Shown here: positions 23,265 to 46,361 of the stretch, piece after piece | How positions within the stretch are numbered: the first letter of the stretch is position 1 | How the letters are laid out: each line of letters starts with the position of its first letter | NCBI GenBank assembly: GCA_038326655.1 | Contig: JBBQKG010000007.1 | Coordinates: 19,067 to 83,066, forward strand | DNA length: 64,000 nucleotides | Direction: 5' to 3' | DNA from: Solirubrobacterales bacterium | Lineage (GTDB): Bacteria; Actinomycetota; Thermoleophilia; Solirubrobacterales; JBBDJG01 | Notes under the pieces: generated by a model | The model's input: only the letters and a program-made list of their open reading frames with translations | Told to the model about the DNA's origin: nothing | Database searches by the model: none | Made by a program: the position numbers and the translations under genes

Positions 23265-23337
<73 letters not shown>

Positions 23338-25630: not shown

Positions 25631-26372
25631 GGGCCGCCTGAAGACCGTCCGCGTCGGCTGCTCGGGCTGGAACTACGCCCACTGGCGCGAGCTCGTCTAT
25701 CCGAAAGGGCTGCCGCCGGGGCGCTGGCTTGCCTACTACGCGACGCTGTTCGACACGGTTGAGGTCAACACCACCTTCTATCGGCTGCCCGCCCGGCCGG
25801 CGGTGGAAGGCTGGGCACGCCAAAGCCCGCCCGGCTTTCTGTTCGCCGTCAAGGCGAGCCGGTACCTGACTCACATCAAGCGGCTCACCGACATGCGCGC
25901 CGGCGTGGCGCGCTTCTACGAGCGCATCGAGCCGCTGCTCGAGGCGGGGAAGCTCGGGCCGGTGCTGTGGCAGCTGCCGGGGAACTTTCGCCGCGATGAC
26001 GAGCGCCTCGAGGCCGCGCTCGACGCATTGCCCGAGGGCCGCCACGCCTTCGAGTTCCGTCACGAGAGCTGGTTCACGCCCGAGGTCTACGAGCTGTTGC
26101 GCAGCAGGGCCGTCGCACTCGTGATCGGGGACACGCCTGAGCGCCCGTTCCAGACGCACGAGCAGACCGCGGACTGGACCTTCTTGCGCTTCCATTACGG
26201 ATCGCGGGGCCGCAACGGCAACTACTCGCAGCGAGAACTCGACGCGTGGGCGGCGCGCATCGCAAAGTGGCGGCGAAGCATCGACGTCTACGCGTACTTC
26301 AACAACGACTGGAACGGCTACGCCGTGCGCAACGGGCTCTACCTGAAACGCGCGCTAGCCGAGTTGGGGTAA
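25614..26372 (+). CDS. DUF72 (YecE/UPF0759) family protein
   Basis: Contains VRVGCSGWNYAHWRELVYP...YYATLFDTVEVNTTFYRLP...FEFRHESW, the DUF72 pattern. GTG start overlapping the previous gene by 17 nt (start uncertain). Confidence 0.85.
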   Translation: MRRPSEGRLKTVRVGCSGWNYAHWRELVYPKGLPPGRWLAYYATLFDTVEVNTTFYRLPARPAVEGWARQSPPGFLFAVKASRYLTHIKRLTDMRAGVARFYERIEPLLEAGKLGPVLWQLPGNFRRDDERLEAALDALPEGRHAFEFRHESWFTPEVYELLRSRAVALVIGDTPERPFQTHEQTADWTFLRFHYGSRGRNGNYSQRELDAWAARIAKWRRSIDVYAYFNNDWNGYAVRNGLYLKRALAELG

Positions 26373-27257
26373 GGCCTGCCGCTGGTCCAGGACGGGTGCG
26401 AACAGGTCGCCCTCGCGCTCCACCCGCCCCAGCACCGCATCGCAGTCGAACACGAGCAGGTCCGGGTCGCGCTGCTCCAGCGCCCGCTCCACTTCCTCCC
26501 AGTGCACCGGCGCCGACACCGTCGGCCGCTCGCGTGCGCGCAGCGAGTAGACGCAGACCGTTGTCTTGTGGTCGTCGTTCTGGCTCCAGTCGACAAACAC
26601 CTTCCCGCCCCGGATGCTCTTCTTCATGCTCGAGACGACGAGCTCGGGCATCTGCTTCTCGAGCAGCATCGCGATTGCGCGTGCGAACGGCTTCGTGTCG
26701 TCGTACGTGACCGGGCCGTTCAGCGGCACATAGACCTGAAGCCCCTTGGAGCCCGAGGTCTTTGGGTAGCAGTCGAGCCCGAGACCGGTGAACAGCCGGC
26801 GAAGGGCGGCCCCGACCAGCGCGCACTCGACGATCCCGGCGGGCTCACCGGGGTCGAGGTCGAACACCATCATCGTCGGCTGCATCACGTCCTCGGCCCG
26901 CGAGAGCGACGTGTGCAGCTCGAGGTCGGCGAGGTTCGCGAGCCAGATCAGCGTCGGCAGGTCGTTTGCGAGGCAGTACTGGATCACGCGCTTGTTGTGC
27001 ACGGTCACGGTCTCGATCCAGTCGGGCCGGTGGGACGGGCACTGCTTCTCGTAGAAGAACTGGCCCTCGACGCCGTCGGGGTAGCGCTTGAGCGTCAGCG
27101 GCCGGTCGCGGAGGTGCGGGAGCAGGGCCGGCGCGACCCGCCGGTAGTAGTCGATCACCTGGCCCTTCGTGAACCCGGTGGCCGGATAAAAGATCTTGTC
27201 GAGGTTGGAGAGCTTGAGGCGACGGCCCTCGACTTCGACCTCGACGGCCTTTGTCAC
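26355..27257 (-). CDS. ligD: NHEJ DNA polymerase/primase (stand-alone LigD polymerase domain)
   Basis: 300 aa. Contains LKLSNLDKIFYPATGFTKG, LKRYPDGV..FFYEK and KVFVDWSQNDDHKT. GTGA overlap with the ku stop. Confidence 0.9.
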   Translation of the reverse strand: MTKAVEVEVEGRRLKLSNLDKIFYPATGFTKGQVIDYYRRVAPALLPHLRDRPLTLKRYPDGVEGQFFYEKQCPSHRPDWIETVTVHNKRVIQYCLANDLPTLIWLANLADLELHTSLSRAEDVMQPTMMVFDLDPGEPAGIVECALVGAALRRLFTGLGLDCYPKTSGSKGLQVYVPLNGPVTYDDTKPFARAIAMLLEKQMPELVVSSMKKSIRGGKVFVDWSQNDDHKTTVCVYSLRARERPTVSAPVHWEEVERALEQRDPDLLVFDCDAVLGRVEREGDLFAPVLDQRQALPQLG

Positions 27258-28156
27258 GCCTGCGTCTTGGACCTGGGCTTCTTCGCGGGAGTGCGCTTCG
27301 CGGGAGTGCGCTTCGCCGCGGCCTTCTTCGCCGGCGCCTTCCGCGCGCCGGTGCCCGGCTTGCTCGCCTTCGCGCCGTTCGACTTCGCCGCGGCAAGAGA
27401 CGCCTCGAGCGCCGCCATCAGGTCGGGCACGGCCGTCGGCGCCTCGGGCTCGGGTGCCACCGCGACCTCCTGGCCCTCGGCCTTGCGCTCGATCAGGTCG
27501 AGCACGCGCTCGCGGTACTCGTCGCGGTACTTGCTCGGATCGAACGGGGTCGCCAGGGACTCGATCAGCTGCCTGGCCATGTCGACCTCGCGCTTGGTCG
27601 CCGACACCTCCCCGTCGGGGAGCTCGTCGATCTGCTCGGGGTCGATCAGCTCGTCGGCGAACAGCATCGTCTCCATCGTGAGCACGTCCCCGGCGGCGCG
27701 AATTGCGGTCAGGTACTCCTTCGAGCGGATCACGACCCGTGCGATCGCGACCTTGTTGGTCTCCTTCAGCGCCTCCAGCAGCAGCCTGTAGGGCTTCGCG
27801 GCGCCGGTGTCGGGGGCGAGGTAGTAGGGGTGCTCGTAGAACAGAGGGTCGATGTCGTCGAGGTCGACGAAGTCCTCGATGTCGATCGTGCGCGTCTTCG
27901 CCGGGTCGAGCGCCTCGAGCTCCTCAGGCGTCACGACCACGTAGCGCCCCGGGCTGACCTCGTAGCCCTTGACGATCTCCTCGTAGGGAACTTCCGCATC
28001 CTCCTCGGCGCAATAGCGCTTCAGCAGGATGCGGGAATGGTCCTGCTCGTGGAGCTGATTGAAGCGCACCGTCTTCTTGGACACCGCGCTGTAGAGCTTT
28101 ACGGGCACGTTGACCAGCCCGAAGCTGATCGCGCCTCTCCATATCGATCTAGCCAT
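27254..28156 (-). CDS. ku: Ku protein (NHEJ end-binding) with a Lys/Ala/Pro-rich basic tail
   Basis: N-terminus MARSIWRGAISFGLVNVPVKLYSAV. Tail ends KAPAKKAAAKRTPAKRTPAKKPRSKTQA. Confidence 0.95.
   Translation of the reverse strand: MARSIWRGAISFGLVNVPVKLYSAVSKKTVRFNQLHEQDHSRILLKRYCAEEDAEVPYEEIVKGYEVSPGRYVVVTPEELEALDPAKTRTIDIEDFVDLDDIDPLFYEHPYYLAPDTGAAKPYRLLLEALKETNKVAIARVVIRSKEYLTAIRAAGDVLTMETMLFADELIDPEQIDELPDGEVSATKREVDMARQLIESLATPFDPSKYRDEYRERVLDLIERKAEGQEVAVAPEPEAPTAVPDLMAALEASLAAAKSNGAKASKPGTGARKAPAKKAAAKRTPAKRTPAKKPRSKTQA
27281..27310. repeat. Perfect 2 x 15-bp tandem repeat inside the ku 3' end (encodes AKRTP-AKRTP)
   Basis: cttcgcgggagtgcg cttcgcgggagtgcg, read directly. Confidence 0.85.
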
Positions 28157-28158
28157 GG

Positions 28159-29589
28159 CTACTCCAGTTTCTCCTCGAAGATGACATCCCTTGCATTCTT
28201 ATCGTCGCGAAGGCCTTTGAAAGAAGCCTGTCGCAACGTTCGTGTCGTCGTCCAGCCACGAAACTCGACCTCGGCGACCAGCTCCGGCTCCACGAACCGG
28301 GTCCCCTTGGGCGGCTGACGGCCCTCGAACGGGCTGTCGGGGCGCTCCAGCTCCTGGAGGCGCGCGAGCAGGTCCTGCAGGGTTTGCTGGGTGAATCCCG
28401 TGCCCACGTTGCCCGCGTAGACGAGCTTTCCATCCGCATGGAAGCCGACCGCCAGGGACCCCAGCGTCGCACTCCGGCCGCCCTGTCCGGGCAGCCAGCC
28501 CCCGATCACGAGCTCCTGGCGCATCCCGTTCTTCACCTTGAGCCAGTCGCCGCTGCGTGATCCGGGCTTGTAGCGGCTGTCGAGGCGCTTCGCGACAACG
28601 CCCTCGAGCCTCTGCTCCTTGCTCGCGTCGAGCATCGCCTTCCCCTCGCCCACGTGATGCGCCGGGGTGCGCCAGTTGTCGCCGTTCAGGTCCAGCTGCT
28701 CCAGCAATGCGCGGCGCTCCGTGTACGGCAGCGCCATCGTGTTGCGGCCCTCGAGATACAGCACGTCGAAGATCATGTAGGTCACCGGCGTGTCGGCCAT
28801 GCGGCGCCGGATCGCGGACTCCGACGCGAGGTGCATGCGCGGTTGAAGCCGCTGGAAGCTGGGATGGCCCTGCTCGTCGAGCGCCACGATCTCTCCGTCG
28901 AGCACGGCGCGTCGCGAGCCGAGCTCCCGGCCGAGCTTGCGCAGCTCCGGGTAATGCTTGGTGACGTCGCGCAGGCTGCGGCTCTCGAGGTGCACACGGC
29001 CCCCATCGCAGTAGGCGACCGCGCGAACCCCGTCCCACTTGACCTCGAACGCGTGGTCGCGATCGTTTCGGGGCAGGTCGGACAGGCGGGCCATCATCGG
29101 CACCACGTGCTCGGGCATCGGGTCCTCCTCCGGGTCGGCCGGGGGGTCCATCCGGTGGATCATCCAGTTCTTGCTATTGGTCCGGAACAGGACGTACTTG
29201 CCCTCGAGGCGCTTGCCGTGGAAGGTCACGATCACCTCGTCGTCGCGCCACTTCTCGCACTCGTACGTGCCGCTGTCCCAGATCTTCACCTTGCCGGCGC
29301 CGTACTCGCCCTCCGGGATCTCCCCGGCGAAGTCGATGTACTCGAGCGGGTGGTCCTCGACGCGGACCGCGAGGTGGTTTCGCTTGGGGTCGGTCGGGAT
29401 CCCCTTCGGCACCGCCCACGAGACCAGCACGCCGTCACGCTCCAGGCGGAGGTCCCAGTGCAGGCTGCGCGCATGGTGCTCCTGGATCACGAAGCGCTCC
29501 CCGTGCCGGCGGGTGCGCGAGCGTCCGGCCGGCTCGGGGGTCTTGCCGAAGTCGCGCTTTTCCTCGTAGGTCTCGAGCTTCTGTGCCAT
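28159..29589 (-). CDS. ligD: ATP-dependent DNA ligase LigD, phosphoesterase + ligase domains
   Basis: 476 aa. PE domain FVIQEHHARSLHWDLRLE...VEDHPLEY. Ligase adenylation motif FEVKWDGVRAV. OB domain at the C-terminus. Confidence 0.9.
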   Translation of the reverse strand: MAQKLETYEEKRDFGKTPEPAGRSRTRRHGERFVIQEHHARSLHWDLRLERDGVLVSWAVPKGIPTDPKRNHLAVRVEDHPLEYIDFAGEIPEGEYGAGKVKIWDSGTYECEKWRDDEVIVTFHGKRLEGKYVLFRTNSKNWMIHRMDPPADPEEDPMPEHVVPMMARLSDLPRNDRDHAFEVKWDGVRAVAYCDGGRVHLESRSLRDVTKHYPELRKLGRELGSRRAVLDGEIVALDEQGHPSFQRLQPRMHLASESAIRRRMADTPVTYMIFDVLYLEGRNTMALPYTERRALLEQLDLNGDNWRTPAHHVGEGKAMLDASKEQRLEGVVAKRLDSRYKPGSRSGDWLKVKNGMRQELVIGGWLPGQGGRSATLGSLAVGFHADGKLVYAGNVGTGFTQQTLQDLLARLQELERPDSPFEGRQPPKGTRFVEPELVAEVEFRGWTTTRTLRQASFKGLRDDKNARDVIFEEKLE

Positions 29590-31379: not shown

Positions 31380-31841
31380 ATGTCCGCTTGCCGTAGGCAG
31401 GCCATGATCGACGCGCCGGTGGAGACGATCTGGGAGCTCGTCGGGGATCCCCGCAGGCACCCGGAATGGTGGCCGCGCGTGATTCACGTGAACGGCGAGC
31501 GCTTCGAGCCCGGCGACCAGTACGTGCAGGTCACCCGCGGCCCACTCGGCTCTGGCGAGACGAACTTCCTCGTCGAGCGCAAGGGCGACCTCCGCGAGAT
31601 CCGGCTCGAGTGCCAGCTCACCGGGACCTACGCCCACTGGCACCTGACCGAGGCTCGGGGCGGAACCTTCGTCGACCTCGAGATGGGGATGCAGCCGAAG
31701 GGGTTCGGCGACAAGGTTTTTGACAGCACCTTCGGGCCGCGCTACTTCAGGCGCTGGGCCGCCCACTCGATCGACGCGCTCGGTGAGGTCGCAGGCGCCG
31801 AGGCGGAGGTCAGCCGCCCGCCACGGCCGGCAGGATCGTGA
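31380..31841 (+). CDS. SRPBCC (START/polyketide-cyclase-like) family protein
   Basis: 153 aa. MIDAPVETIWELVGDPRRHPEWWP is typical of the fold family. The 3' end overlaps the convergent moaD-like gene by 32 nt. Confidence 0.75.
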   Translation: MSACRRQAMIDAPVETIWELVGDPRRHPEWWPRVIHVNGERFEPGDQYVQVTRGPLGSGETNFLVERKGDLREIRLECQLTGTYAHWHLTEARGGTFVDLEMGMQPKGFGDKVFDSTFGPRYFRRWAAHSIDALGEVAGAEAEVSRPPRPAGS

Positions 31842-32082
31842 TCTCGTCGCCCTCGGCGACGGGCGTTTCGAGCCCCTGCCCGAAGCGGATGTCCTCACCG
31901 CCGACGTAGACGTTCACGAAGCGCCGCAGCTCGCCACCCTCGGTGATGCGCTCGCGCAGGCCGTCGTAACGCTCGTACAGCGCGTCGAGCGCCTCGCCCA
32001 CCGATGCGCCCTCGACCTCTGTCTCGGCCGCGTTGCCCGTCAGAGTGCGCAGCTGCGCCGGGATCTTGACCGTGACCGACAT
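31810..32082 (-). CDS. MoaD/ThiS-family beta-grasp sulfur-carrier protein (C-terminal Gly-Gly)
   Basis: 90 aa ending ...EITILPAVAGG*. The ATG immediately follows the TGA of the upstream ThrC-like gene (TGAATG). Confidence 0.8.
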   Translation of the reverse strand: MSVTVKIPAQLRTLTGNAAETEVEGASVGEALDALYERYDGLRERITEGGELRRFVNVYVGGEDIRFGQGLETPVAEGDEITILPAVAGG

Positions 32083-33315
32083 TCAGGCTTCGGCGGCCGC
32101 GAGCACAGCGTCGGCGACGCTCGCCGTGGTCGGTTCGACGTGGTGGACGGTGACGGCACCGCGAATCGCGTCGAGGGTCTTGAGGCCTTCGCCCGTGATG
32201 ATCAGGACGACCCGCTCGTCCGGTCCGATGTCGCCGCGCTCGGCGAGCTTTCGAAGCACCGCGGTGGTGACGCCGCCGGCGGTCTCGGTGAAGATGCCGG
32301 TGGTCTCCGCGAGCAGCTTGATGCCCTCAACGATCTCCTCGTCGGTGACGGCGTCGATCGATCCGCCGGTCCTGCGCGCGAGGTCGAGCGCGAACACGCC
32401 GTCGGCCGGGTTGCCGATCGCAAGCGACTTCGCGATCGTCTGCGGGCGCACGGGGCGGCAGACCTCCTGGCCCGCCTGGAACGCTTGCGCGACCGGCGAG
32501 CAGCCCTCCGCCTGCGCGCCGTTGAAAGCCGGAAGCTCACCCTCGATGATGCCGAGCTCGAGCCACTCCTCGAAGCCGCGGGCGATCCGGGTGAAGAGCG
32601 AGCCGGAGGCGACCGGCACGACCACGCGGTCGGGCAGCTCGAAGCCCAGCTGCTCGGCGACCTCGAAGCCGAGCGTCTTTGAGCCCTCGGCGTAGTAGGG
32701 CCGCAGATTTACGTTCACGAACGCCCAGGGGTGCTCGGACGAGAGCTCTGTGCAGAGGCGGTTGACGTCGTCGTAGTTGCCGTCCACGGCCACGAGCCGG
32801 GTGCCGTAGACGCCGGTTGCAAGGATCTTCTGCTCCTCGAGGTCCGCGGGCACGAACACGTAGGACTCGAGCCCGGCGGCGGCGGCGTGGGCGGCGACGG
32901 CATTCGCGAGGTTGCCGGTGGATGCGCAGGCGACGACCTCGTAGCCCAGCTCCTTCGCCTTCGCGATCGCGACGTTCACGACGCGGTCCTTGAAGGAATG
33001 CGTGGGGTTGGCAGCGTCGTTCTTGACGTAGACCTCACCGATGCCGAGCCGCTCCGCGAGCCGCTCGGAGCGAATCAGCGGCGTGAAGCCCGCGTCGAGG
33101 GCGGTCTTGGGACGCCGCGCGAAAGGCAGGAAGTCCGCATAGCGCCAGATCGAGGCGGGTCCCGCCTGGATCTTGCGCCGCAACTCGGCCGGGTCCCCCA
33201 GCGACGAGTGGTCGTAGGTGACCTCTAGAGGGCCGAAGCACCGCTCGCAGACGTAGCTAGCGTCGAGCGGATAGGTAGCGTGGCACTCCTTACAACTCAG
33301 TGCTTGTACTGGCAT
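32083..33315 (-). CDS. Threonine synthase-family PLP enzyme (ThrC homologue, possibly a MetM-like homocysteine-forming enzyme)
   Basis: ATG 33315 behind GGAGA gives MPVQALSCKECHATYPLDASYVCERCFGPLEV (Cys4 ribbon). PLP-lysine motif NPTHSFKDR. The tracked ORF start at 33504 runs through the riboswitch and is rejected. Confidence 0.9.
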   Translation of the reverse strand: MPVQALSCKECHATYPLDASYVCERCFGPLEVTYDHSSLGDPAELRRKIQAGPASIWRYADFLPFARRPKTALDAGFTPLIRSERLAERLGIGEVYVKNDAANPTHSFKDRVVNVAIAKAKELGYEVVACASTGNLANAVAAHAAAAGLESYVFVPADLEEQKILATGVYGTRLVAVDGNYDDVNRLCTELSSEHPWAFVNVNLRPYYAEGSKTLGFEVAEQLGFELPDRVVVPVASGSLFTRIARGFEEWLELGIIEGELPAFNGAQAEGCSPVAQAFQAGQEVCRPVRPQTIAKSLAIGNPADGVFALDLARRTGGSIDAVTDEEIVEGIKLLAETTGIFTETAGGVTTAVLRKLAERGDIGPDERVVLIITGEGLKTLDAIRGAVTVHHVEPTTASVADAVLAAAEA

Positions 33316-33334
33316 CTTCGTCTCCTTACCAACT

Positions 33335-33361
33335 AAAAAACTCTGCCCGGCTGTGGCAGAG
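33335..33361 (-). terminator. Riboswitch expression-platform intrinsic terminator
   Basis: The minus strand reads CTCTGCCacagccgGGCAGAGtttttt: a 7-bp stem, 7-nt loop and T6, located 20 nt before the ATG. Confidence 0.85.
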
Positions 33362-33384
33362 GTTTCGTTGGGAAGAAAACCCCC

Positions 33385-33507
33385 CCCACATCTCCCAGGC
33401 CTTGAACATGGAGCCTGCTGGAATTGGCACCGTTTCCTCGCCGCAAGGCTCGGAATGGTTGCCGGGGCTTCAAAGGGCCAGTCCCTCCACCCCTCTGGAT
33501 GCAAGAG
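33385..33507 (-). promoter_or_regulatory. SAM-I (S-box) riboswitch aptamer
   Basis: The minus strand reads CUCUUGCAUCCAGAGGGGUGGAGGGACUGGCCCUUUGAAGCCCCGGCAACCAUUCCGAGCCUUGCGGCGAGGAAACGGUGCCAAUUCCAGCAGGCUCCAUGUUCAAGGCCUGGGAGAUGUGGGG. All conserved SAM-I blocks are present, and P1 (CUUGCAUC / GAUGUGGG) can form. Confidence 0.9.
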
Positions 33508-33521
33508 CTATGTGGTCGGTG

Positions 33522-33527
33522 ATTATA
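33522..33527 (-). promoter_or_regulatory. -10 box (TATAAT) of the riboswitch promoter
   Basis: gcgTATAATc lies about 14 nt upstream of the first aptamer nucleotide. The -35 element is weak. Confidence 0.5.
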
Positions 33528-33589
33528 CGCATGCCGCCGACGAAGCCGTATCCAGGCGACCTTCCGCCGCCTAATAGGATGCGCCGGCC

Positions 33590-34075
33590 TTGGCCGCGGA
33601 GATCCTGTGGGCGCCCTGGAGGCTCGAGTACATCATCGGCGAGAAGTCACACGAGTGCATCTTCTGCGCCAAGCCGGCGCTGGAAGACGACGCCGCGCTG
33701 ATCGTCCGCCGCGGTGAGCGCTGCTTCGTGATGCTGAATGCGTTTCCGTACACGAGCGGGCACGTGATGATCGCTCCCTTTGAACACACCGCCGACCTCG
33801 CCGGGCTCGACGAAGCGACCGCACGCGAGCTGATGTCGCTCACGCAGGACTCGATCCGGGCGATCGGCGGCGCCTACAGGCCGGAGGGCTTCAACGTCGG
33901 CGCGAACCTCGGCACGGTGGCCGGCGCCGGAGTCGCCGACCATGTCCACATGCACGTGGTCCCGCGCTGGGAGGGCGACACCAACTTCATGCCGGTGCTG
34001 GGCGAGGTCCGTGTGCTGCCCGAGAGCCTCGGCGACACGCACCGCAAGCTGAGGGAGGCCTTCGCGAACCTGTGA
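33590..34075 (+). CDS. HIT-family nucleotide hydrolase/phosphorylase
   Basis: 161 aa. Histidine triad ADHVHMHVVPR. N-terminal ILWAPWRLEYI, as in Ap4A-phosphorylase-type HIT proteins. TTG start. Confidence 0.85.
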   Translation: MAAEILWAPWRLEYIIGEKSHECIFCAKPALEDDAALIVRRGERCFVMLNAFPYTSGHVMIAPFEHTADLAGLDEATARELMSLTQDSIRAIGGAYRPEGFNVGANLGTVAGAGVADHVHMHVVPRWEGDTNFMPVLGEVRVLPESLGDTHRKLREAFANL

Positions 34076-45914: not shown

Positions 45915-46361
45915 TCAGCGCTTGGGTGTCAGGACGAGGAGCAAGCCGCCATCGTCATCGTAGGCGGGGAAGACGTCGGCGGTCGCCTCGGCGGGCAGAT
46001 CGCCTTCGGCCTCCACCCGGACCGACCGCCCGAGCACCCGGACGCCCCACTCCAGCGAGGTGTTGATCGGATCGTCGCCCTCGCCGAAGCTGAGGCCGAG
46101 CACCTCCTTCACCGGGCGGCCGACGGTCGCCTCGTCCTTCAGGCCGGTGAGCTCGAAGCTGCCCCGGCCGCAGCCGATCACGCGCGCTTCGCTGTCGCAC
46201 ACGAAGAACGCCGCGTTGGGGTCGGGGAAGTAGTCGTCGAGCAACTCGAAGAGGAACCCGAACCCGCACTTCTGGCAGCCTCGCGGGTTCGTGCTGAAGC
46301 CGGCCGTCCGCTCGGCGGGGGTGGTGCGGGTACCGCAGTTGGGACAAATGAAGATGGGCAC
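45915..46361 (-). CDS. Hypothetical zinc-ribbon protein with a PAS-like C-terminal region
   Basis: 148 aa. CPNCG-x19-CQKCG. High GC3. Occupies the slot between ruvB and secDF. Confidence 0.6.
   Translation of the reverse strand: MPIFICPNCGTRTTPAERTAGFSTNPRGCQKCGFGFLFELLDDYFPDPNAAFFVCDSEARVIGCGRGSFELTGLKDEATVGRPVKEVLGLSFGEGDDPINTSLEWGVRVLGRSVRVEAEGDLPAEATADVFPAYDDDGGLLLVLTPKR

Follow-up and report, generated by a model that had tools for sequence, protein, structure and literature searches.

The window analysed here is a 64,000-nt stretch of contig JBBQKG010000007.1 (assembly GCA_038326655.1, Solirubrobacterales bacterium), and its minus strand carries a two-gene operon preceded by an S-adenosylmethionine (SAM) riboswitch of the SAM-I or S-box class. 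The first gene encodes a 410-aa fold-type II enzyme that depends on pyridoxal 5'-phosphate (PLP) and belongs to the threonine synthase (ThrC) family, and the second encodes a 90-aa protein with the beta-grasp fold of sulfur carriers that ends in two glycines (GG). An earlier note on this DNA had proposed that the pair makes homocysteine with a protein thiocarboxylate as sulfur donor and that it is mislabelled as threonine synthase. We refer to the two genes as metM-like and metO-like, after the MetM/MetO pair that the note had named from Streptomyces and that is indeed on record (Hasebe et al. 2024, as represented in bioRxiv 10.1101/2024.10.14.618325 and PMC12172450). The features of the locus are collected in Table 1.

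Table 1. Features of the metM-like/metO-like operon and its leader (positions in the window)
Feature	Positions	Strand	Evidence
Promoter -10 box TATAAT	33522..33527	-	Sequence; TAnnnT equally spaced from P1 in most of 78 related leaders
ACATAG motif between -10 box and P1	33508..33513	-	ACATAG/ACATAA in most of 78 aligned leaders
SAM-I (S-box) aptamer, P1-P4	33385..33505	-	RF00162, full model
Predicted antiterminator	33345..33400	-	Constrained ViennaRNA folds, -29.8 kcal/mol for the segment
Intrinsic terminator CTCTGCC-ACAGCCG-GGCAGAG + T6	33335..33361	-	7-bp stem (5 G-C pairs), 7-nt loop
Shine-Dalgarno AAGGAGA, 5 nt before ATG	33321..33327	-	Sequence
metM-like gene, 410-aa ThrC-family fold-type II PLP enzyme	32083..33315	-	PALP 7e-76; signature motifs; clade placement
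metO-like gene, 90-aa beta-grasp sulfur carrier	31810..32082	-	ThiS PF02597; CysO structure matches

The riboswitch leader

The whole window was scanned against Rfam 15 with cmscan and the SAM-I aptamer was the only riboswitch found. The RF00162 model aligned over its entire length (model positions 1-108 of 108) with a score of 85.4 bits (E = 8.5e-19), the gathering cut-off being 44.4 bits. This covariance search, which the earlier note had called for, places the aptamer within 2 nt of the limits that the note had given (33507-33385), and the sequence blocks and P1 pairing that it had pointed out are visible. P1 is formed by CUUGCAUC and GAUGUGGG, with eight pairs including three G-U pairs. 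For comparison, we took the 80 highest-ranking loci from GTDB species genomes, 79 of which had enough flanking DNA to be analysed on each side. Across 80 aligned leaders, compensatory changes that keep the pairing were observed in 8 of the 20 pairs predicted for P2, P3 and P4.

The TATAAT box that had been reported ahead of the aptamer is present at 33527-33522. It was missed by a two-hexamer scan for sigma-70 promoters because there is no match to a -35 box. We infer that transcription starts around 33516-33513. The ACATAG/ACATAA motif that separates the -10 box from P1 lies outside the Rfam model and its conservation may reflect the start of the transcript or an additional pairing partner.

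The intrinsic terminator, described earlier as perfect and as followed by GGAGA and the ATG at 33315, was recovered as well: it spans 33361-33335 and is the sole terminator-like site of the minus strand within 31600-33800, and the GGAGA is part of the Shine-Dalgarno sequence. The minimum-energy fold of the 203-nt leader (-83.5 kcal/mol) contains the aptamer and the terminator together, and it pairs the Shine-Dalgarno region with UUUUCUUCC upstream of the terminator as an extension of the helix. Constraining the folds yielded a predicted antiterminator in which the partners of GAAACCUCU, CCACA and CCGGGC are GCCUGG, the 3' strand of P1 (UGUGG) and GGGGGUUUU. The first three segments occupy the 5' arm and loop of the terminator and reach into its 3' arm. 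The antiterminator is incompatible with both P1 and the terminator. The leader has the classic layout of a SAM-I OFF switch, with SAM binding and repression as predictions of the folding model. At low SAM concentrations, the 3' strand of P1 would pair downstream to form the antiterminator and RNA polymerase would enter the operon. Upon SAM binding, P1 would be locked, the terminator would form and transcription would end 20 nt short of the start codon. The ribosome-binding site may in addition be masked by the extended terminator structure. A 260-nt metatranscriptome contig ('ice metagenome', run X7) matches 33486-33227 with 3 mismatches and spans the aptamer, the terminator and the start of metM. 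It constitutes a weak sign of read-through transcription in nature because DNA carry-over is possible.

The association of this leader with metM is conserved. A SAM-like leader was found directly upstream of the metM homologue in 79/79 loci with enough upstream DNA, and all 22 loci that were rechecked against Rfam, the weakest nhmmer matches included, passed the SAM-I cut-off with scores of 66-86 bits. In 50 of the 79 related leaders, the position of the terminator is occupied by a hairpin with five or more consecutive T after it.

Several leaders differ in architecture. In about 15 loci, mostly labelled Solirubrobacteraceae (L006, L008-L010, L014, L015, L017, L018, L022, L023, L025, L028, L036, L053, L060), the aptamer of the metM leader scores 66-77 bits to RF00162 and the entire P4 stem-loop is missing. 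These aptamers are located ~60-160 nt upstream of metM (e.g., L008:5844-6003) with the junction ...CCAAUUCCAG-AGAGAUGUG, and their leaders possess no T-run; a pairing of GCUCUUCGC...GCGAAGGAGCCC is found instead that could sequester the Shine-Dalgarno site. They look like a translational variant reminiscent of SAM-I/IV and, if functional, this variant would be a naturally minimised SAM-I scaffold bridging SAM-I and SAM-I/IV. In many leaders of the terminator type (e.g., L029:5985-6006), the 3' arm of the terminator (CGGCGGAGG) and the T-run leave only 5-10 nt to the ATG. The ribosome-binding site is then probably provided by the GGAGG of the stem itself, which would imply combined transcriptional and translational control.

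The enzyme and its carrier

The first gene product had been described as a ThrC-family PLP enzyme with a Cys4 ribbon and the NPTHSFKDR lysine, and each of these elements was found. The Pfam PALP domain was matched at 7e-76, residues C8, C11, C23 and C26 form the ribbon (CxxC-11-CxxC, codons 33238-33294), and Lys109, the PLP Schiff-base residue within NPTHSFKDR, is encoded at 32989-32991. The nearest solved structures are ThrCs with 35-41% identity, from Bacillus subtilis (6CGQ), Aquifex (2ZSJ), Thermus thermophilus (1UIM) and Mycobacterium tuberculosis (2D1F). The window enzyme has in common with them the fold, the SFKDR lysine motif and presumably the substrate. In contrast to them, it carries the additional N-terminal Cys4 ribbon (residues 1-50), and its gene does not lie beside thrB and is controlled by a SAM riboswitch. 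The matches to the ThrC structures begin at residues 50-56 of the window protein and the ribbon is therefore covered by none of them. We rejected the ribbon as a marker of MetM: two N-terminal CxxC motifs are found in many ThrC-family members outside the MetM-like clade, and the MetM-like protein of Microcystis lacks the ribbon.

The database labels do not separate the two kinds of enzyme. The window protein scores 304.7 bits to the NCBIfam thrC model TIGR00260 (cut-off 167.1), because of which annotation pipelines call enzymes of this type threonine synthase, and every close homologue bearing a name in JGI or NCBI is labelled 'threonine synthase'. We discarded TIGR00260 as a discriminator since MetM-like proteins reach 270-305 bits and a true ThrC 310 bits, and no MetM-specific NCBIfam model was among the matches listed. 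The mislabelling suspected in the earlier note is thus borne out by the names in use and by a model that passes for both the window protein and true ThrC. The same mislabelling of MetM has already been pointed out in GapMind 2026.

A tree of the ThrC family, another analysis that the note had proposed, was built by neighbour-joining from the window protein, the Nonomuraea and Microcystis sequences described below and 43 full-length family representatives. Two separate groups were obtained. All six canonical ThrCs fall in one of them, and the other is composed of the window protein, its Thermoleophilia relatives, homologues from Nonomuraea and Micromonosporaceae, and thrC_1 of Microcystis aeruginosa, which is labelled 'thrC (metM)'. 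The window enzyme is 60% identical to Microcystis thrC_1 and 53% identical to the Nonomuraea gerenzanensis homologue. Microcystis aeruginosa possesses a separate canonical ThrC besides thrC_1, and Nonomuraea gerenzanensis likewise presents both types. Its MetM-like gene (TIGR00260, 270 bits) is preceded by a SAM-I aptamer of 68.7 bits and followed by a gene for a 91-aa protein ending in ...IIPAVAGG; its second gene is a canonical thrC beside thrB, with 65% identity to M. tuberculosis ThrC and 310 bits to TIGR00260. We also observed that the PLSDB record NZ_LT559118.1 (L081, L082), 11.85 Mb long, is titled 'Nonomuraea gerenzanensis plasmid I' and has only 10 annotated features. Among its genes are the thrC-thrB pair, with a probable hom upstream, and others of chromosomal type, and the record is evidently the chromosome filed as a plasmid.

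The two groups differ in four motifs. The canonical sequences PTGSFKDRGM, STGNT, NSVNPxRxEGQKT and PVGNAGN correspond in the window clade to PTHSFKDRVV, STGNL, NVNLRPYYAEGSKT and PVASGS, respectively. In T. thermophilus numbering, the window protein and its whole clade present the substitutions T88L, S155N, R160Y and N188S, whereas T, S, R and N are kept at these positions in 6/6 canonical ThrCs. We take these four residues to be contacts to the substrate phosphate, the group that guides water addition in ThrC. The pattern would fit an enzyme in which the elimination from O-phosphohomoserine is kept and the nucleophile and site of attack are changed.

The second gene was said to begin with zero spacer (TGAATG) and to encode a 90-aa MoaD/ThiS-fold protein ending in GG. 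This description holds. The stop codon of metM abuts the start codon of metO in the junction TGAATG, so that the two are translated together. The Pfam ThiS domain (PF02597) was matched at 1.8e-18 and the protein terminates in ...PAVAGG followed by TGA, with the two glycine codons at 31813-31818. It aligns over its full length to the CysO proteins of Amycolatopsis orientalis (4N6E_B, 3.4e-23, 51% identity) and M. tuberculosis (3DWG_C, 8e-21, 49% identity), and it is 57% identical to the MetO-like protein of Nonomuraea. NCBIfam names it SAMP1 (NF041918, 73.1 bits against a cut-off of 60) or MoaD-family. By homology, the carrier would receive a C-terminal thiocarboxylate from an E1-like enzyme. 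It ends directly in GG and therefore C-terminal trimming would be needless before its first use.

The coupling of the two genes is as consistent as that of the leader. A MetO homologue is encoded directly downstream of the metM homologue in 79/79 loci with enough downstream DNA, the spacing being mostly between a 1-nt overlap and a few tens of nucleotides. The carrier ends exactly in GG in 65 of the 79 relatives, presents one extra residue in 13, and has a different, extended end in one. The extra residue is A, R, C, S or V (L001, L016, L018, L020, L036, L041, L043, L058, L061, L062, L065, L070, L072), and in these 13 homologues the GG would have to be exposed by a JAMM-type peptidase.

Nearly all of the 80 loci are labelled as metagenome-assembled genomes of Thermoleophilia (Solirubrobacterales, Thermoleophilaceae, Conexibacter) or as broader Actinomycetota, with only two labels outside these groups (Acetobacteraceae and Eremiobacteraeota), and the best of them shares 89% identity. 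The exact window enzyme had no record in the assembly collection, although close homologues number in the thousands. The sequencing runs that contain the stretch are metagenomes of sediment, rock, biocrust and soil. The host is an uncultured soil or sediment actinobacterium of the class Thermoleophilia.

Probable homocysteine synthesis and its alternatives

These results suggest, with a probability that we put at roughly 85%, that the operon encodes a SAM-I-controlled MetM/MetO route to homocysteine. The thiocarboxylate-dependent synthesis proposed in the earlier note is supported by the clade of the enzyme, by its coupling to a GG carrier and by the conservation of the module in 79/79 relatives, and the reaction is the one expected from homology. 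The metM-like product would thus probably be an O-phosphohomoserine-dependent homocysteine synthase. In the predicted pathway, MetO would be adenylated, and a MoeZ-type E1/rhodanese whose gene lies elsewhere in the genome would turn its C-terminus into a thiocarboxylate. MetM would bind O-phospho-L-homoserine on Lys109 and eliminate the phosphate, after which the thiocarboxylate of MetO would attack C-gamma, in place of the water addition at C-beta carried out by threonine synthase. Homocysteine would finally be freed, possibly through a MetO-homocysteine adduct cut by a Mec-type JAMM hydrolase.

This logic has precedents. In the CysM/CysO system, the protein thiocarboxylate is taken up by a fold-type II PLP enzyme, and the same is predicted for MetM/MetO. 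The window carrier resembles CysO of the M. tuberculosis CysM/CysO/Mec/MoeZ system (PDB 3DWG) in sequence, including the same ...ILPAVAGG end; unlike CysM, the enzyme belongs to the ThrC family and its predicted substrate is O-phosphohomoserine rather than O-phosphoserine, and the operon contains no mec gene. Thiocarboxylate-dependent homocysteine synthesis was also reportedly described by Krishnamoorthy and Begley in 2011 for HcyS/HcyF/HcyD/MetY of Wolinella succinogenes. That system likewise draws the sulfur of homocysteine from a protein thiocarboxylate, but it relies on a MetY-type (fold-type I) O-acetylhomoserine sulfhydrylase with clustered E1 and JAMM genes, whereas the enzyme here is of the ThrC type and neither partner is nearby. 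The closest precedent is found in Streptomyces albulus, where MetM, MetO, MoeZ and Mec turn O-phosphohomoserine into homocysteine (Hasebe et al. 2024, AEM 90:e01247-24, cited by bioRxiv 10.1101/2024.10.14.618325, App. 4). PMC12172450 reports a SAM riboswitch upstream of S. albulus metM and the presence of MetM homologues in cyanobacteria. The window pair presents the same ThrC-homologous enzyme, small GG carrier, upstream SAM riboswitch and common misannotation as threonine synthase, and the chemistry predicted for it is that of S. albulus, from O-phosphohomoserine to homocysteine via a protein thiocarboxylate with MoeZ and Mec acting in trans. It differs in its host, a member of Thermoleophilia and not of the class Actinomycetes, and, set beside the S. 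albulus pair, in a carrier that ends directly in GG.

The earlier note had also presented riboswitch control as independent genomic support from a different lineage. The lineage is a different class, but it belongs to the same phylum, Actinomycetota, and the riboswitch does not constitute new independent support because SAM-riboswitch control of metM had already been reported in S. albulus. The literature yielded no usable older comparative-genomics report in which an S-box precedes a thrC-like gene.

Several observations weigh against homocysteine synthesis by this pair. The 64-kb window contains no canonical thrC, MoeZ, Mec or MetX/MetY route, and the same partners are absent within 6 kb in the relatives among annotated neighbour families recurring in at least five loci. 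The tree bears no support values, and orthology to S. albulus MetM would be traced only through Microcystis (60%) and Nonomuraea (53%), the identity between Microcystis thrC_1 and S. albulus MetM being 51.6% according to PMC12172450. That source also reports that the Microcystis MetM-like protein has threonine synthase and threonine deaminase activities in vitro and that methionine was not raised upon its induction. Finally, the phosphate-contact roles of T88, S155, R160 and N188 are putative.

Three alternatives were weighed against the MetM/MetO reading. It is improbable that the pair makes another sulfur amino acid, either cysteine from O-phosphoserine, as CysM/CysO do, or the product of a cysteate-synthase-like sulfur transfer by a ThrC-family enzyme. 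The best solved relatives of the carrier are indeed CysO proteins (49-51% identity), in some Firmicutes cysteine genes are under SAM-I control, and ThrC-family enzymes acting on O-phosphoserine exist, cysteate synthase (TIGR03844) being among the matches of the window enzyme. However, TIGR03844 gives no more than 81.9 bits where 324.9 are required, the window enzyme does not resemble CysM/CysK (the match to the cysteine synthase A model is partial, E = 3e-13), and its nearest functionally labelled homologues are MetM-like.

It is very unlikely that the enzyme is a divergent but genuine threonine synthase (or synthase/deaminase), with the carrier serving another pathway and the riboswitch balancing flux at the O-phosphohomoserine branch point. 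SAM-I regulons cover methionine, cysteine and SAM genes, and 79/79 relatives join the enzyme to a GG carrier through abutting or overlapping codons or short spacers. The TIGR00260 score above cut-off and the uniform 'threonine synthase' annotation of close homologues speak for a threonine synthase, but true ThrCs and MetM-like proteins reach similar scores with this model. The in vitro activities of the Microcystis homologue (PMC12172450) are to be set against a clade separate from the proven ThrCs, the replacement of four ThrC active-site positions, and the absence here of the hom-thrC-thrB cluster that accompanies the canonical copy of Nonomuraea. Actinomycetes normally have a single, shared MoeZ that is encoded at another site of the genome. 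We find it hardly credible that MetM uses free sulfide with the small protein dispensable or acting as a ubiquitin-like modifier, as its SAMP1 match and the lack of a nearby E1 gene might suggest, given that gene adjacency and the GG terminus are conserved and that the Streptomyces pathway requires MetO, MoeZ and Mec (bioRxiv 10.1101/2024.10.14.618325).

Genes around the operon and wider significance

The neighbours of the operon are HIT, PMM, SRPBCC and CorA genes and do not form the hom-thrC-thrB neighbourhood that is typical of Actinomycetota. The genes of the window are of ordinary housekeeping type and include truB, infB, nusA, rimP, coaBC and the pyr/car operon, together with corA, the HIT and PMM genes, relA, recJ, secDF and ruvABC. 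The note had stated that the E1-like activator and JAMM partners lie outside the window; accordingly, a Pfam scan of 52 open reading frames (ORFs) with high GC3 across the window found neither a ThiF/E1 nor a JAMM domain, and a regular expression for the JAMM motif returned no credible ORF in all six frames. Within 6 kb of the operon in the 80 relatives, the annotated recurrent families were PMSR, CtaG, FHA, DJ-1, YkuD, an epimerase, a nucleotidyltransferase and two families without a Pfam match. Neither an E1 nor a JAMM protein was found in the window or among these recurrent neighbours, and an activating enzyme would therefore have to come from another part of the genome. In 26 relatives, msrA (PMSR, 3e-63) lies convergent and immediately after metO (e.g., L021:7616-8290, minus strand), as a second methionine-related gene at those loci; it is not found in the window.

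Other features of the window were noted. On the minus strand at 26355-29589, three adjacent ORFs, read by eye, form a probable split cluster for non-homologous end joining. Their products would be the polymerase domain of LigD (300 aa), Ku (300 aa, MARSIWRGAISFGLVNVPVKLY...) and, in a 476-aa protein, the phosphoesterase and ligase of LigD. A 148-aa ORF between secDF and ruvB (45915-46361, minus strand) carries an N-terminal CPNC...CQKC motif resembling a zinc ribbon and matches no Pfam family at 1e-5. On the plus strand, 23265-23337 is a tRNA gene (73.2 bits), and its anticodon loop CCG suggests a tRNA-Arg; several relatives (L012, L013, L018, L020, L034, L062) have a similar tRNA at a distance of a few kb from metO.

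The pathway and its riboswitch control have already been published, and no new chemistry or mode of regulation is revealed here. What is new is the instance in Thermoleophilia, within the same phylum, to which the survey adds that the module is conserved at every Thermoleophilia locus recovered. It is conceivable, although we regard it as doubtful, that MetM/MetO is universal or even the sole route to homocysteine in Thermoleophilia, with the SAM-I switch rebuilt in one Solirubrobacteraceae subgroup into the P4-less form that sequesters the Shine-Dalgarno site. The four motifs by which MetM-like proteins differ from canonical ThrC could serve as the seed of a dedicated family model. If the assignment is correct, the MetM/MetO pathway reaches into Thermoleophilia, a class of soil actinobacteria that is abundant and mostly uncultured. 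Every public annotation examined in this class still reads threonine synthase, and predictions of methionine prototrophy from such genomes would be wrong unless this annotation is corrected.

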